Assembly: GCA_965198945.1 (NCBI GenBank)
Contig: CBDAQI010000004.1
Span: 64,001 to 128,000 of the forward strand
Length of the DNA stretch: 64,000 bases
Source of the DNA: Thermodesulfobacteriota bacterium
GTDB taxonomy: Bacteria; Desulfobacterota_D; UBA1144; Nemesobacterales; Mycalebacteriaceae
Direction: 5' to 3'
In this document: positions 57,706 through 64,000 of the stretch, piece after piece
Position numbering within the stretch: position 1 is the first letter of the stretch
Layout of the letters: the number at the start of each line of letters is the position of its first letter
Notes under the pieces: generated by a model
The model's database searches: none
Told to the model about the DNA's origin: nothing
The model's input: only the letters and a program-made list of their open reading frames with translations
Position numbers and translations under genes: made by a program

Positions 57706-57931
57706 CAGCGTTTGTTTTCCCTGGTTTTTTCGTCCGCAGTTTTTTCCGCCCGCGTATTTGATTTTTCAAGCAGAAAAACTGAAATAAAAAAACAGACGCA
57801 TAGCGCCATGTTTAAAAAGAAAAGCTGAGTGAATGTCATTTCAAAAGACATTTATATCTTTTAACCCGGTTTTTTTCAAACATGTCTTTGATTTTTGTAA
57901 TAGTTTTTGTCTGACTGTAGACTTCCCCGTA

Positions 57932-58540
57932 ATGTTGGGTTCTCCGGTTCTTGTTTTAAACAAAAACTACCTGCCCGTCTCCGTAACCAATTTAAGGCGG
58001 GCGTTCATAATGCTTTACTGTGGCGAGGCAAAAGCCGTTTCGGAGAAATATGAGACTTTTGATTTTGACAGTTGGGCAGATATTTCGGCCGCCGCTTCTG
58101 CGGGTCTGAAGGGCGACTACATACGAACGGTTACAAAAATCATAAAAGCGCCCAGGGTTATCATTCTTCTCCGTTACGGCGGTTTTTACAGAAAGCGTCC
58201 GAAATTCAACCGTTTCAACATATTTCGCAGAGACGGCGGAAAGTGCCAATACTGCGGTCGCGCTTTTCCGAAGAGCGATCTTACAATTGACCATGTAACT
58301 CCCCGTGCGCTCGGAGGCACAAGCAGATGGAACAATGTTGTTTGTTCATGCGCTTCCTGCAACCGCAGAAAAGGCGGAAGAACCCCGGAGCAGGCCGGAA
58401 TGAAGCTGCTGACAAAACCGGTTGAACCCCAATGGGGCCCTTTTGCGGGAATGTATGCGCGCGCCGTACGCTACAAAGAGTGGGAACCGTTTGTGAACTT
58501 TGTTGACGCTTCGTATTGGAACGTTGAGCTTGAAGGGTGA
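57932..58540 (+). CDS. HNH endonuclease (McrA/HNH_5-like)
   Basis: VLVLNKNY.P, IFRRDGGKCQYCG, TIDHVTPR, WNNVVCSCASCN. Confidence 0.92.
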   Translation: MLGSPVLVLNKNYLPVSVTNLRRAFIMLYCGEAKAVSEKYETFDFDSWADISAAASAGLKGDYIRTVTKIIKAPRVIILLRYGGFYRKRPKFNRFNIFRRDGGKCQYCGRAFPKSDLTIDHVTPRALGGTSRWNNVVCSCASCNRRKGGRTPEQAGMKLLTKPVEPQWGPFAGMYARAVRYKEWEPFVNFVDASYWNVELEG

Positions 58541-58799
58541 GACCGGCCCACGCGATTTTTCTTTCTGTCTGCGTCACTTTCATAAAAGAGTAATGGCGCC
58601 TCTTTTTCTCATACAGTCCTAAAGACAGGCTCAGTAAATCGGTGAGCAATCCTTAAAACATAGCCGTCATACAATCTGAAAGGTCTTTTTTTAACAGTCT
58701 TATTAACAGGTAAAAAACGAGAAAATGTTTGTAAAATTGTTGACTTTGAAGACCGTTAATATATGTTGTGCCTCAATAATTTCGAATTTTGGAGAAAAA

Positions 58800-60059
58800 A
58801 TGACCTTTAAAGAATTGGACAGTCTTATAAAAGAGGCCGGATACCGTGGCACAAGTGACCTCAGCGGCTCCCACATCACTATTCAAACGATAGATCAATT
58901 TGGAGAAATTTTCGCCGCCGGAATTTCAGAAGAGCTAAGAAAACAATTCTCAGACAGCCTGCCAAAATCTTCTTCCGAGGATGTTCTGCGAGAATTGGCG
59001 GATTACGTTTACGGCTCATGCTATGTAAAAGAAATTTTCCCCGTCAAAGTAAAAATGAGAAAGCCTTTATCCAGGCTTGCCGTGGAATATATAAACAAAG
59101 TTTTTCCTCTCAAAGCAAAAGCAGTTTCGGAACATAATGTGGTGATTGACAAAGACATTGTTTTTGGACCTTCGGCTTCTCCGCAAATTATCAATGCCGA
59201 CACATTAACGTTTGACGGTGGTTCCATAACAGCTGTCACTACAAGTTTAAGCATAAATGCAAATAAGTTGATCATAACAGGTAAGAGCAGTTCCAATCCT
59301 TATCATGTCGGAGTTTTTGGACGGAAAGGTTCGGACGGCGCAGACGGCAATCCCGGCAAGCATTACACTTCCCCCGCTGTGGCGGGTCATGACAGCAGTG
59401 CCCCCACACCGGGCATATGCACTGGTGCGAGTAATGGCGGCAAAGGAGATAATGGTCTTAAAGGATTTCCGGGGGAGGACGGCAAAGACGGAAAAGACGG
59501 CCAGCCCAACATGCCGGCCAATATTTCTATTGCTGATATGGGAGACAAATCCAAAGAGATGCCCGTTTTCTGTCCTTCTTGCGGTACGGCTAATGTTGTC
59601 ATTCTTGATACTGAAACCGCAAACTTTGTTGTCAGCACTTATTCGGGCGCGGGTGGCGCCGGCGGGATTGGACAGACAGGCGGCAATGGCGGAAATGGTT
59701 GCCGCACCGGCTGCGAAGGCACCGACGGGGGCCAGGCCGGCGATGGCGGTGACGGCGGTGATGGGGGCAACGGCGGCAACGGCGGCAATGGCGCTTCGGG
59801 CAACCCGATCACAATTACGTTCCCGATAAAAGACAAGAATTATCTGCAGACAGTCAGCACAACTGCGCCGCTGGGTTCCGGAGGCGACGAAGGCCGGGCC
59901 GGAGTCGGCGGCGATGGCGGTACGGGCGGTGCGGGAGGCAAGCATAAGACCAACGGGTCGTCCGGCGGACAGGGAAAATACGGTGAAAAAGGTAAAAAGG
60001 GCGCGGACGGAACAAGACCGGGCGCTCCGGGCAATATCGTATTTCATTACACTCCATGA
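58800..60059 (+). CDS. Glycine-rich (Gly-X-X / PGRS-like) repeat protein 1
   Basis: RBS GGAGA before MTFKELD; long GxxGxxG and GGNGGDG tracts after a ~170-aa globular region; no signal peptide. Confidence 0.8.
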   Translation: MTFKELDSLIKEAGYRGTSDLSGSHITIQTIDQFGEIFAAGISEELRKQFSDSLPKSSSEDVLRELADYVYGSCYVKEIFPVKVKMRKPLSRLAVEYINKVFPLKAKAVSEHNVVIDKDIVFGPSASPQIINADTLTFDGGSITAVTTSLSINANKLIITGKSSSNPYHVGVFGRKGSDGADGNPGKHYTSPAVAGHDSSAPTPGICTGASNGGKGDNGLKGFPGEDGKDGKDGQPNMPANISIADMGDKSKEMPVFCPSCGTANVVILDTETANFVVSTYSGAGGAGGIGQTGGNGGNGCRTGCEGTDGGQAGDGGDGGDGGNGGNGGNGASGNPITITFPIKDKNYLQTVSTTAPLGSGGDEGRAGVGGDGGTGGAGGKHKTNGSSGGQGKYGEKGKKGADGTRPGAPGNIVFHYTP

Positions 60060-60099: not shown

Positions 60100-61362
60100 A
60101 TGGAATTCTTATACGACTCTGTTGCGGGAAAATCCGGCCCCTGGGGTTATGGGGTCCACCACGAAGAGATTCCCACACTTGAAAGGGCAAAAGAATTACT
60201 TGGCCCGAAAAACGATGAAATACGAAAAAAACGCAGCAGCGTTTATTACAATTCAAAAAACATCAGAATAAGAAGTCGCCTGCCGATTGGGATGCACGAC
60301 AGATGTGAAGAATATGTTTTTGCGGGTGGAAAAATTCATGAAAAGGATGCCCGCCAGCTTAAAAAACATTTTCCCATACAGCTGAAAATTATTCGCCTTC
60401 CGGAACACACCATATGGGAAAATCAAACCTGTGATATAAGCAACAACCACAAAGACTGGACTGAGATAAGTCCCGAAAAGGAACTATATACCTATCTTCA
60501 TGTTGATAAACTAGTCGTCGCACCCGGAGCAAGAATTGTTATTTACGGCAATGTGCTTGTTTTTCACTGTGGGGAAATAGTTCTGGATATGTCTTCATCC
60601 AAGAAAGATTATCCTGAAATGAAAATCCGGAGAATGCATGATTTTAGTGTTGATATCTTCGGAACGAAACACTCAGGGCTTGGCAGTGTTCGCCTCCTTC
60701 AGGCAAAAGACGGCAGACACGGATTTGATGGCAGAAACCAAAATCAAGTGAATCCCGCTGATGATGTTGTTCCGAGCATTTTTGGCCCCTTGGATATTGA
60801 AAAATTATATGACTGTGATCAAAGCCGTATTCATAAGCCCCGACCAAAAAATGGTGAAAACGGTTTTCGTGGTGAAGACGGTTCTGACGGACAAAACGGC
60901 GGCATGTTGCAGTTGGCGAATATAACGATACACAAATTAACAAATTTTCGGGACAGACGTTTCAGGATATTTGCCCAGGCCGGACAGGGACGAAATGGCG
61001 GCGATGGCGGCGATGGCGGCAACGGCGGACTGCCTTCCAATATTTTTGTTCAAATCCCCCAAGCCTACTCTGATCGTCTTTCTTTAATTTCTCAGGCATC
61101 CGTGGGGGGCAGAGGAGGTCTTCCGGGTCAGGGAGGGCTTAAGGGGAAATCTTACAATACTGATACTGCGGAAAAAGTGCCGCGAAATGGAAAATCCGGG
61201 ACGGCCGGAATAAACGGTAAAGACCGGGAGGCCGTGCCTATCTATGTCACGCACCAGACACAACAAATAAACAAGGAGGTTTCATATCTTGAGAAGGCGG
61301 TGGATCAAATAAAGAAAAAATTTGAACCGCAGAACGGGCAAGACGAGTTTCGTCTGTTGTGA
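60100..61362 (+). CDS. Glycine-rich repeat protein 2 (distant paralogue of protein 1)
   Basis: Same layout; YVF/YVYG and FP motifs, GxxG tracts, ANITI/ANISI spacer. Confidence 0.75.
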   Translation: MEFLYDSVAGKSGPWGYGVHHEEIPTLERAKELLGPKNDEIRKKRSSVYYNSKNIRIRSRLPIGMHDRCEEYVFAGGKIHEKDARQLKKHFPIQLKIIRLPEHTIWENQTCDISNNHKDWTEISPEKELYTYLHVDKLVVAPGARIVIYGNVLVFHCGEIVLDMSSSKKDYPEMKIRRMHDFSVDIFGTKHSGLGSVRLLQAKDGRHGFDGRNQNQVNPADDVVPSIFGPLDIEKLYDCDQSRIHKPRPKNGENGFRGEDGSDGQNGGMLQLANITIHKLTNFRDRRFRIFAQAGQGRNGGDGGDGGNGGLPSNIFVQIPQAYSDRLSLISQASVGGRGGLPGQGGLKGKSYNTDTAEKVPRNGKSGTAGINGKDREAVPIYVTHQTQQINKEVSYLEKAVDQIKKKFEPQNGQDEFRLL

Positions 61363-61381: not shown

Positions 61382-62050
61382 ATGGCAAGAAAAATCTTTA
61401 TGTCATATAAACATAGTGATAGTGACGTCCATCCTTTAAATGGCGAAACAACTGCTCGTGTATATGTTGACAATCTAATTGAATTGTTTGAAGGAGATGA
61501 AATTTACAAGGGAGAAGGAGATGAAGATTTGAGTGATTTTCAAGATGAGACTATTGCATCTCACTTGAGGGACAAAATATACGACTCCAGCATGACCATC
61601 ATTTTAATTTCTCCGCAGATCAAAGACCCTGCCCAAAGAGACAGCGACCAATGGATACCCTGGGAAATTGCCTATTCTCTTAAGGAAATTACTCGGAATG
61701 ACCGCACAAGCAAAACAAATGCTACGCTAGCAATTGTTTTGCCAGATGGAAACTCATCTTACACTTACTATCTTGAGGAAAATACTTGTCAGTCCTGTCA
61801 TTGCAGACTTCTGAAAACTCACACTCTCTTTCAAATTATGAGAGATAATATGTTTAATCAAAAAAACCCTACTTATTCAGGCTGTCTGAATCATCCCTCA
61901 GGGACTGTTTATAAGGGAGATTCTTGCTATATTTACTCAGTCAAGTGGTCTGATTTAATAAGTGATAAGGACAAATACCTTTGCACTGCTGAGCGTATAA
62001 AAGAGAACATTGGCGATTACAAGATAGTAAAGGAAGTTAAAGATGGATGA
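61382..62050 (+). CDS. ThsB-like TIR protein (MTH538/DUF1863 type) #1
   Basis: RKIFMSYKHSD, SSMTIILISP, WIPWEIAYSL with catalytic Glu. Confidence 0.88.
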   Translation: MARKIFMSYKHSDSDVHPLNGETTARVYVDNLIELFEGDEIYKGEGDEDLSDFQDETIASHLRDKIYDSSMTIILISPQIKDPAQRDSDQWIPWEIAYSLKEITRNDRTSKTNATLAIVLPDGNSSYTYYLEENTCQSCHCRLLKTHTLFQIMRDNMFNQKNPTYSGCLNHPSGTVYKGDSCYIYSVKWSDLISDKDKYLCTAERIKENIGDYKIVKEVKDG

Positions 62051-62522
62051 CAAATCACAAGTAGTAAAACATCTTGAAATGATTCAAGGTGTTGTTAACC
62101 GCTTGAGTCATGATTTTTTTCTAATCAAAGGTTGGAGTATGACCTTGCTGGTCGGTGGGATAATTTTCATAACAAGAAATGAAATTCAAACTTATTGGTT
62201 TATCTGTGCATTTCTTATTCCCGTAATCGGCTTTTGGATTTTAGACGGATATTTTTTATGGCAAGAGCGTTTGTTTCGTGATGTCTATAACGACTTCAGA
62301 AAGAGAAAAATTACAGACTTTGAAATGAATCCGATGAAGCATGAAAACAGTTGGGTTTTATTTGCTTTATGGATGATTACTCTTGGCAAGAAACATTCAG
62401 ATAAGCCAAGACGTAGTTGGTTATCTTCAATTTTTTCAGTAACGCTGAACATGTTTTATGGAATTGAGATTTTGTTTGTGGCAGGGGTATTTTTTATTCT
62501 CAAGTATCAAGGAAGTTATTGA
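62043..62522 (+). CDS. Small multi-pass membrane protein (candidate effector)
   Basis: KHLEMIQGVVNRL...KGWS...FWILDGYFLWQERLFR; 3-4 hydrophobic helices. Confidence 0.8.
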   Translation: MDDKSQVVKHLEMIQGVVNRLSHDFFLIKGWSMTLLVGGIIFITRNEIQTYWFICAFLIPVIGFWILDGYFLWQERLFRDVYNDFRKRKITDFEMNPMKHENSWVLFALWMITLGKKHSDKPRRSWLSSIFSVTLNMFYGIEILFVAGVFFILKYQGSY

Positions 62523-62525
62523 ACA

Positions 62526-63128
62526 ATGAGAAGGGTGTTTTTCAGTTTTGACTGGGATGATGTTTGGAGAGCAAATCAAGTTCGTAATAGTTGGGTTGCA
62601 AAAAGAAGTTATAAGATTGCGGGATTTAGAGACGTTGCTGAAATTGAAAAAGTTAAAAGACATTCAGACAAAGAAATAAAAAATTGGATAGACAAACAAA
62701 TGAAAGGCACATCAGTTACTTGTGTTTTGATTGGTAGCAAAACAAACAAAAGCAAGTGGGTGAAATATGAAGTAGAGAAAAGCATTGAAAAAGGAAACGG
62801 ACTTTTTGGAATACTCATTCATAACTTGAAAAACCCTGAAGGGAAAACTGATAAACAAGGGGAAAATATGCTTGAAGAGTTTAACAAAGAAGAAAATTTC
62901 GGAGCAAAAGTCAAAAAAGCTTTTGTAGGCGGAGGTGTAGGGTTGTGGCTTGCAAGACTTGTATTTCCTCAATTTACCATTCCGTTGACTTTCATGGGTG
63001 CTGTTCTCGGATTAAGCAAATCAGATGATAGTGGTGATGACTACAAAATTTATGATTGGTTTGACGATAATGGATATGAGAACCTCGGCGACTGGATAGA
63101 GAAGTCTGCCCAGCAGGTTGGAAGATAA
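62526..63128 (+). CDS. ThsB-like TIR protein #2 with hydrophobic insertion
   Basis: RRVFFSFDW.D.WRANQVRN, TSVTCVLIG, WVKYEV, YDW...GY.NL..WIE. Confidence 0.9.
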   Translation: MRRVFFSFDWDDVWRANQVRNSWVAKRSYKIAGFRDVAEIEKVKRHSDKEIKNWIDKQMKGTSVTCVLIGSKTNKSKWVKYEVEKSIEKGNGLFGILIHNLKNPEGKTDKQGENMLEEFNKEENFGAKVKKAFVGGGVGLWLARLVFPQFTIPLTFMGAVLGLSKSDDSGDDYKIYDWFDDNGYENLGDWIEKSAQQVGR

Positions 63129-63141
63129 TGGGAGGTTAGAG

Positions 63142-63642
63142 ATGGCACCAAAGAGGCAAGTTTTTTACAGTTTTCATTACCAACCGGATAGTTGGCGAGC
63201 CTCACAAGTTCGCAATATAGGTGTTGTTGAAGGGAATGAACCTGCTTCTGATAATGATTGGGAGAAAATCAAGAAAGGTGGTGAGAATTCGATTAAAAGA
63301 TGGATAAACGAACAGATGAAATATAGGTCATGCACTGTTGTTCTCGTTGGAACAAATACTGCAGATAGAAAATGGATTGATTACGAAATACGCAAGTCAT
63401 GGAATGGTAATATGGGTGTTGTCGGCATATACATTCATGGATTGAAAGACCAAGAAGGTCAATTATCTTTTCAGGGAAAGAATCCTTTTGATTTCATTAC
63501 TTTTACATCTGGCAAAAAAATGTCTTCAATAGTTAAGTGTTACAATCCTCAGGGATTGAACAGCAAAGAAAAATATGATTGGATTTCAAGGCATTTGTCT
63601 AATGCAATTGAAGAGGCTATTCGAATAAGGAGAGGTTATTAG
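63142..63642 (+). CDS. ThsB-like TIR protein #3
   Basis: RQVFYSFHY..D.WRASQVRNIG, SCTVVLVG, WIDYEIRKSW, GIYIHGL. Confidence 0.92.
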   Translation: MAPKRQVFYSFHYQPDSWRASQVRNIGVVEGNEPASDNDWEKIKKGGENSIKRWINEQMKYRSCTVVLVGTNTADRKWIDYEIRKSWNGNMGVVGIYIHGLKDQEGQLSFQGKNPFDFITFTSGKKMSSIVKCYNPQGLNSKEKYDWISRHLSNAIEEAIRIRRGY

Positions 63643-64000
63643 TATTCAACCATGACATTATTTCTATGCCACTCTAAAGATGAAGGATCTGGCAAAGTTT
63701 TTGAGTGGGTGGAGAGTCTAATCTGTTTGCTTTTATAGGCGGCAAGTGATGAATTTTCTTTTATCTCTACGATTCTTTCTGGAACCAAAATGCAATATTT
63801 CTTGTCTATACAAAACATTCCTCTGTCAAAAGCCCAGTGATGTTTGCGGCAGGCATAGGGCAAGCCCGTTTCTAATATCATCCGTGCCAGAGCATCTTTT
63901 CGGCACAATCGGCACAATATGAGCGGCTTCAGTTTCATGAAATCTGGCTAAATCAACCAACGAGTCATTACACATGCAACATTGGTGGTCATACAGATTC
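63639..64000 (-). pseudogene. C-terminal part of HNH restriction-type endonuclease, frameshifted; 5' end outside window
   Basis: YDHQCCMC...EAAHIVP...DDIRNGLALC / RKHHWAFDRG...LEWHR; 9-nt and 4-nt tandem duplications. Confidence 0.8.

Follow-up and report, generated by a model that had tools for sequence, protein, structure and literature searches.

A Thoeris-like cassette of three TIR genes and a small membrane protein, probably antiphage, belongs by sequence to the defense candidate PDC-M50

The subject of this report is a four-gene cassette at positions 61382..63642 of a 64,000-nucleotide (nt) stretch, here called the window, taken from the forward strand of contig CBDAQI010000004.1 (positions 64,001 to 128,000; GenBank assembly GCA_965198945.1). 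The source is a Thermodesulfobacteriota genome of 1.39 Mb in 14 contigs, 95.3% complete. The cassette encodes three TIR proteins of the ThsB type (TIR-1, TIR-2, and TIR-3) and a membrane protein of 159 amino acids (aa), for which, together with its relatives, “MEM” is used as shorthand. The original prediction, made from the letters alone, had described four tightly coupled, AT-rich, co-oriented genes, and the open reading frames (ORFs), spacings, and base composition bear this out (Table 1). TIR-1 and MEM overlap by 8 nt, MEM and TIR-2 are separated by 3 nt, and TIR-2 and TIR-3 by 13 nt; all four ORFs are intact, a purine-rich ribosome-binding motif precedes every start, and the genes are read as one transcription unit. 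The guanine-plus-cytosine content of the cassette is 0.34-0.39, as against about 0.43-0.59 in the upstream 5 kb. An alternative TTG start at 63118 would give a TIR-3 of 174 aa, but the ATG at 63142 is favored because TIR-3 homologues start MA(P/T)KRQ. The unit is closed, as had also been proposed, by a convergent ORF, an HNH fragment. In a scan for promoters and terminators, counts did not exceed those in shuffled controls, and no plus-strand terminator was found after TIR-3.

Table 1. Coordinates in the window of the cassette genes, followed by those of neighboring genes
Feature	Position	Strand	Description
TIR-1 gene	61382-62050	+	222 aa; ThsB-type TIR, motif QWIPWEI
MEM gene	62043-62522	+	159 aa; small membrane protein, proposed effector
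TIR-2 gene	62526-63128	+	200 aa; ThsB-type TIR, motif KWVKYEV
TIR-3 gene	63142-63642	+	166 aa from ATG; ThsB-type TIR, motif KWIDYEI
HNH fragment	63639-63938	-	99 aa; convergent with the cassette
HNH_2 gene, larger part	63826-64000, running on to contig position ~128449	-	207-aa ORF
Gly-rich gene 1	58725-60059	+	444 aa
Gly-rich gene 2	60100-61362	+	420 aa; ends 19 nt before TIR-1
HNH_5/HNH endonuclease	57833-58540	+	235 aa; weak PADLOC PtuB-like matches; upstream of the Gly-rich genes

The three TIR proteins had been predicted to be divergent and to retain the catalytic glutamate, and both features are confirmed by family models and alignments. All three pass the Pfam cutoff for ThsB_TIR (PF08937), with E values of 2e-5 for TIR-1, 6e-24 for TIR-2, and 2.2e-28 for TIR-3, and all three give full-length matches to PADLOC ThsB models (TIR-1, PDLC00428, E 8.7e-77; TIR-2, PDLC00431, 1e-57; TIR-3, PDLC00433, 1.5e-71). 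The W-x-x-x-E motifs read WIPWEI, WVKYEV, and WIDYEI, respectively. When the proteins were aligned with close homologues from other loci (25 for TIR-1, 24 for TIR-2, and 17 for TIR-3), the catalytic Glu was found to be kept in every homologue covering the motif; one TIR-1 homologue alone departs from the motif, with W replaced by R ahead of the Glu, and one homologue each of TIR-2 and TIR-3 is truncated and ends after the motif. TIR-2 carries an insertion of ~38 aa (aa ~128-166, window positions 62907-63023) with a Kyte-Doolittle hydropathy of 1.65 at aa 145-163, a feature common to the TIR-2-type proteins of three Nitrospirales loci (L073, L079, and L063) and of a locus in a congener (L096). 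The same hydropathy scan detected no hydrophobic segment in TIR-1 or TIR-3. The insertion may anchor TIR-2 to the membrane, where the protein probably sits beside MEM.

MEM had been described as a multi-pass membrane protein, and it does contain three hydrophobic segments (aa 25-43, 54-72, and 135-153; Kyte-Doolittle values of 1.9-2.1). An apparent fourth helix at about aa 97-117 coincides with an 18-aa insertion (about aa 101-118) that is absent from 29 aligned homologues, and hence the family architecture is taken to be one of three transmembrane (TM) helices. The family plan is thus an N-terminal amphipathic helix, predicted to be cytosolic, TM1 and TM2 at the first two segments, a basic stretch, and TM3 at the last. 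The predicted topology is N-in/C-out, and the predicted cytosolic loop (aa 74-126) holds 12 lysine and arginine residues. An AlphaFold2 model based on 76 sequences, with a mean predicted local distance difference test (pLDDT) score of 78.2, has helices at 3-46, 51-87, 97-113 (the insertion), and 133-155. Polar residues that are invariant or almost so across the 76 sequences, including Q15, R20, K29, D68, E75, R79, Y82, R86, and D92, map onto predicted cytosolic parts, and the protein is predicted to have a cytosolic face whose basic and aromatic character is conserved.

A search at E<=0.001 places 1058 homologous clusters in this large family, whose members are typically about 140 aa long. The few clusters that come with a source name are all “hypothetical protein,” and none has a precomputed Pfam domain; MEM itself matches no Pfam or NCBIfam family. 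Longer fused forms were not found, on weak search evidence. A Foldseek comparison of the model with the PDB gave nothing at E<=0.001 (best E 1.0), and a wide VIA-align comparison gave generic helical-hairpin and coiled-coil rows with a best Z of 9.2, which is below the meaningful level for helical models. Prediction of four MEM copies as a homo-oligomer scored 0.17 against a mark of 0.42, a result that counts neither for nor against oligomerization. In the ESM Atlas the closest clusters are unnamed hypothetical proteins, and the one named lead, 8xMP (PF24838), has a score of 0.87, below the reliable range. This candidate was rejected: only 2 of 30 MEM members match it, under cutoff at E about 0.009, and a literature search found nothing relevant. 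DUF3278 (PF11683) gives subthreshold matches in 16 of the 30 members (best E 2.2e-4, all under the 26.6-bit cutoff) and is a possible remote relative of MEM.

The association between MEM and TIR genes recurs well beyond the window. We collected 79 MEM loci from species-representative genomes, mainly metagenome-assembled genomes (MAGs) of Poribacteria, Binatia, Latescibacterota, Nitrospirales, and Gammaproteobacteria. A same-strand TIR ORF lies no more than 200 nt from MEM in 47 of them, and in 46 a TIR ORF of 100 aa or more lies within 1.5 kb (32 with a single TIR, 12 with two, and 2 with three). Gene order is nearly fixed, with a TIR-1-type gene upstream of MEM in 22/22 loci and a TIR-2-type gene downstream in 22/23; TIR-3 homologues are placed mostly downstream of MEM or of TIR-2. 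Locus L003 repeats the order TIR1-MEM-TIR2-TIR3 of the window exactly. In PLSDB, 130 plasmid records encode a MEM relative, 82 of them conjugative, with Klebsiella (40), Escherichia (36), and Campylobacter (10) among the genera. A TIR gene stands within one gene of MEM in all 8 plasmid contexts examined (Providencia, Priestia, Klebsiella, E. coli, Campylobacter, Lactiplantibacillus, Streptomyces, and Rhodococcus), so that the pairing spans Pseudomonadota, Campylobacterota, Bacillota, and Actinomycetota at 28-40% identity. Among relatives of the source organism, MEM was found in 2 of 25 other genomes (1 of 5 congeners and 1 of 20 others), and both carry MEM-TIR pairs. The distribution of MEM is patchy and independent of taxonomy.

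Several other neighbors of MEM were observed in these collections. A small DnaJ-domain gene lies directly upstream of MEM in three Latescibacterota loci (L047, L062, and L077). On the Lactiplantibacillus plasmid (L093), a 153-aa ORF at 2450-2911 sits between the TIR gene and MEM; it matches only the C-terminal end of hidden Markov models (HMMs) for the oligonucleotide cyclases of cyclic oligonucleotide-based antiphage signaling systems (CBASS), with an E value of 1.6e-33. The Streptomyces (L094) and Rhodococcus (L095) plasmids carry MEM, a HIT-domain gene, and a TIR gene, partly on opposite strands. MAGs of Poribacteria, Binatia, Latescibacterota, and Nitrospirales supply the overwhelming majority of the nearest MEM relatives.

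Both gene families of the cassette proved to be in PADLOC-DB (v2.0.0) already, under the candidate system PDC-M50. MEM matches all four PDC-M50A HMMs (best PDLC04686, E 6.3e-32), and PDC-M50A is also matched by 7 of 7 plasmid MEM proteins scanned, the Klebsiella protein being outside the scan. PDC-M50B is matched by TIR-2 (E 2.2e-54) and TIR-3 (E 8.2e-66), the two genes after MEM (intervals of 3 and 13 nt). The combination thus already has an entry as a phage defense candidate. PDC candidates stem from a guilt-by-embedding study, a figure legend of which names multigene candidates with TIR (bioRxiv 10.1101/2024.01.29.577857), and PDC-M50 is a computational candidate. The A and B families are the same and are adjacent in the window; however, the cassette differs in having three TIR genes, in drawing one of them, TIR-1, from a different ThsB subfamily (PDLC00428), and in the 18-aa insertion of MEM. 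By sequence, then, the cassette is a fresh member of a catalogued candidate within the broad Thoeris kind, a known kind that entails no new principle. The original prediction had gone further and proposed a distinct Thoeris-like type. That part of it does not stand, since both families are already entered as PDC-M50, which comes near to the match with a described system that the prediction itself had named as counting against it.

The prediction had also remarked that no effector of the ThsA type is visible in the cassette, and the same now holds for the genome. The models SIR2_2 (PF13289), Macro, Peptidase_C14 (PF00656, the one caspase model tried), and DUF2270 found no match in the 95.3%-complete assembly, and no canonical ThsA that might act in trans was detected there. 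The only ThsB_TIR matches in the genome are the three cassette TIRs, and the TIR_2 matches are to these same genes, under cutoff. Among the known Thoeris types, type I resembles the cassette in that several divergent ThsB genes stand beside one effector gene in both. Multiple ThsBs broaden phage sensing in type I Thoeris. Unlike type I, the cassette has no SIR2-SLOG ThsA. The caspase-like effector of type IV has no match in the genome by PF00656 alone. Types II (TM plus Macro effector, His-ADP-ribose) and VII (SLATT effector, cyclic ADP-ribose [cADPR]) share with the cassette the proposed gating of a membrane-disrupting effector by a TIR signal, but no Macro match is found in MEM or the genome, and neither SLATT, Macro, DUF6650, nor channel families are among the Pfam matches of 38 MEM members at E<=1.

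A close parallel lies in a recent survey by Yirmiya et al. (bioRxiv 10.64898/2025.12.03.692087), which, in the parts considered here, lists 29 putative configurations of Thoeris, with verification for types V to XI. As given there, type V has the effector ThsF, a DUF2270 protein with three TM helices, and uses 3'cADPR; type VI has DUF6650; type VII has SLATT and cADPR; type VIII has a cytidine monophosphate (CMP) hydrolase; type IX has ThsJ; type X has an ion channel; and type XI has a hydrolase, from an Actinobacteria scaffold. In the survey's model ThsF assembles into a ring-shaped oligomer that has basic pockets. The protein lacks a classical ligand-binding domain, and through it small TIR-linked membrane effectors of this sort have been established since December 2025 (bioRxiv 10.64898/2025.12.03.692087). 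Our cassette likewise pairs a ThsB TIR with a small three-TM protein, the proposed effector, in which no classical ligand-binding domain is recognized; the predicted cytosolic face of MEM is basic as well. MEM is nevertheless shorter, at about 140 aa for the family compared with about 230 aa for the DUF2270 proteins compared, and its membership in DUF2270 or type V was rejected at the sequence level. PF10028 (DUF2270) is matched by none of 38 MEM family members (30 + 8) at E<=1, and an hhalign comparison of the MEM alignment with three DUF2270 proteins, shallow and with none of them TIR-linked, gave a probability of 0.3%. The PDC-M50A match is absent in the 2 DUF2270 proteins scanned, and DUF2270 itself is found in 0 of 120 genomes of the source phylum.

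For the remaining systems the comparisons are briefer. A type XI arrangement would call for a hydrolase, and the window cassette contains neither a hydrolase gene nor one of the HIT family. HIT genes accompany MEM only on the two plasmids from Actinomycetota that were examined, where they lie between MEM and the TIR gene; the HIT proteins match PADLOC ThsC2 (HIT family), and these MEM-HIT-TIR neighborhoods may be related to type XI. No Bacillus cereus homologue, sought as a type IX lead, turned up in the top 120 hits of the Priestia MEM. One of the new systems among the tested E. coli TIR-I to TIR-IX set is described as having a TM domain (PMC11350192, from the part of that paper considered); Klebsiella TIR+MEM DNA, used as a query, had no match among E. 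coli genomes.

Our preferred reading, to which we give somewhat better than even chances, is that the cassette is a Thoeris-like antiphage signaling system, a member of PDC-M50, in which the TIRs signal to a membrane effector. It follows the logic of types II, V, and VII, in which, as set out in the survey, a TIR signal gates a membrane effector (bioRxiv 10.64898/2025.12.03.692087). Each TIR would recognize a different phage cue and convert NAD+ into an ADP-ribose-derived signal; the signal would bind the cytosolic face of a MEM oligomer, which would then breach or depolarize the inner membrane and abort the infection. In such a scheme several sensors, up to three TIRs, would feed one effector. 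The signal-gated membrane effector of the original prediction thus survives as the best reading of MEM, and, as it had said, no ligand-binding domain was found; the gating is something we infer. A bolder extension, which we regard as rather doubtful, is that PDC-M50A constitutes a separate, Pfam-less minimal class of Thoeris effector, unrelated to ThsF/DUF2270, that would read its signal through the cytosolic extensions of its three TM helices and no other element. MEM would then be a plug-in served by up to three ThsB sensors, among them a membrane-anchored TIR-2, and solo copies in restriction-modification operons might answer signals made in trans or a cue other than that of a TIR. Should its ligand differ from the known cADPR isomers and His-ADPR, a new TIR signal would be added.

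A number of observations weigh against the preferred reading. No nucleotide-binding domain can be recognized in MEM, and none of its relatives has a name or a solved structure; an experimental test of PDC-M50 or the MEM family was not found in the literature search, where a full-text query for “PDC-M50” returned 0 papers; and the effector function of MEM, signal production, membrane damage, and phage protection are all steps that we infer. A further difficulty is posed by solo copies, that is, MEM genes with no TIR neighbor, which make up 33 of the 79 loci. When 10 of the genomes with solo copies were checked, 5 had PF08937 elsewhere and 5 had none. A tree of 80 MEM proteins interleaves solo with TIR-linked copies: at least 18 label changes are needed, and well-supported branches force at least 4. 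From this interleaving it follows that the solo copies are repeated derivatives and not a separate paralogue, and also that MEM is not strictly dependent on a cognate TIR. The tree does not follow taxonomy either, a discordance that suggests exchange inside a shared community. Linkage of MEM homologues to TIR genes holds for the majority of loci, for the plasmid contexts, and for both relatives, and is missing in the solo copies: it is conserved but not obligate. A Pfam scan of 113 neighboring ORFs in 32 solo loci showed that many of these copies lie in or beside defense genes, including type I, type III, or Eco57I-like restriction-modification, Shedu, SLFN/AlbA_2, AAA_21+DUF4276, and an E2/JAB module (L005, L009, L010, L036, L050, L057, L075, and L077 are among them). 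Others adjoin metabolic genes (acyl-CoA dehydrogenase, aminotransferase, and serine hydroxymethyltransferase). The embedding of solo relatives in restriction-modification operons fits the way in which embedding-based candidates were found.

The same evidence can be read in other ways. The roles of the two families may be reversed, with the TIRs as NAD+-depleting effectors and MEM as a sensor, anchor, or regulator, for example of phage-induced membrane perturbation or injection. The limitations section of the survey allows just this, noting that where a type is unverified its TIR may itself act as the effector, by depleting NAD (bioRxiv 10.64898/2025.12.03.692087), which tells against our preferred reading as well; the lack of a recognizable ligand-binding domain in MEM would be accommodated, and the hydrophobic insertion of TIR-2 suggests proximity to the membrane or to MEM. 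Nevertheless, the TIRs are short (166-222 aa), of ThsB type, and matched by the PADLOC ThsB models used for signaling Thoeris; the pairing of a single MEM with as many as three divergent TIRs would better fit many sensors feeding one effector; and the solo copies of MEM in defense islands would become sensors lacking an effector. We consider the reversal unlikely. Keeping the roles and changing the logic fares a little less well in our estimation and is distinctly unlikely. One version would be inverted signaling of the Panoptes kind, in which a constitutive signal holds a TM effector off (PMC13712596, in the part of the account considered) and a phage sponge would remove the signal made by the TIRs; solo MEM in the 5 of 10 genomes lacking PF08937 would then be constitutively toxic. 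Another version would dispense with a messenger in favor of direct TIR-MEM contact, with which the conserved membrane-type insertion of TIR-2 is compatible. Nonstandard activation does exist in Thoeris, since the TIR product 3'cADPR failed to activate the type IX effector in the experiments that the survey reports (bioRxiv 10.64898/2025.12.03.692087).

It may also be asked whether the cassette is a decaying or nondefensive remnant, in which MEM has another role and the TIR neighborhood reflects no more than shared residence in mobile islands. The 33 loci without TIRs, the solo copies beside metabolic genes, and the splitting of the adjacent HNH restriction-type gene into two ORFs all lean this way. 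Against it stand the four intact ORFs with their ribosome-binding sites, the fixed order of TIR-1 upstream and TIR-2 downstream of MEM, the recurrence of the pairing at 28-40% identity on plasmids of four phyla, and the many solo copies that lie within restriction-modification operons or adjoin genes for Shedu, SLFN, and AAA_21. We regard a remnant as very improbable.

With the signaling cassette as the preferred reading, several consequences deserve mention. The MEM family is large, frequent on clinical plasmids, minimal in size, and uncharacterized. If it is truly a working Thoeris effector, MEM would be among the smallest known. For the window, the cassette accounts for an AT-rich accessory islet in a small genome.

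The surroundings of the cassette can be described briefly. Upstream lie two Gly-rich genes, whose products contain long Gly-rich runs (GGxGGxGG and GxDGxDG); the two proteins are related to each other by a single short, weak similarity only, and no Pfam, NCBIfam, or PADLOC family matches the pair above cutoff. Their membership in the cassette was ruled out, with 0 hits across 81 other MEM loci. Downstream, the order beyond the cassette is the split HNH_2-type gene, then a 94-aa ORF, then alaS. Since the HNH_2 gene is divided between two ORFs, it is probably frameshifted; it resembles the gene of a phosphorothioate-DNA restriction endonuclease.

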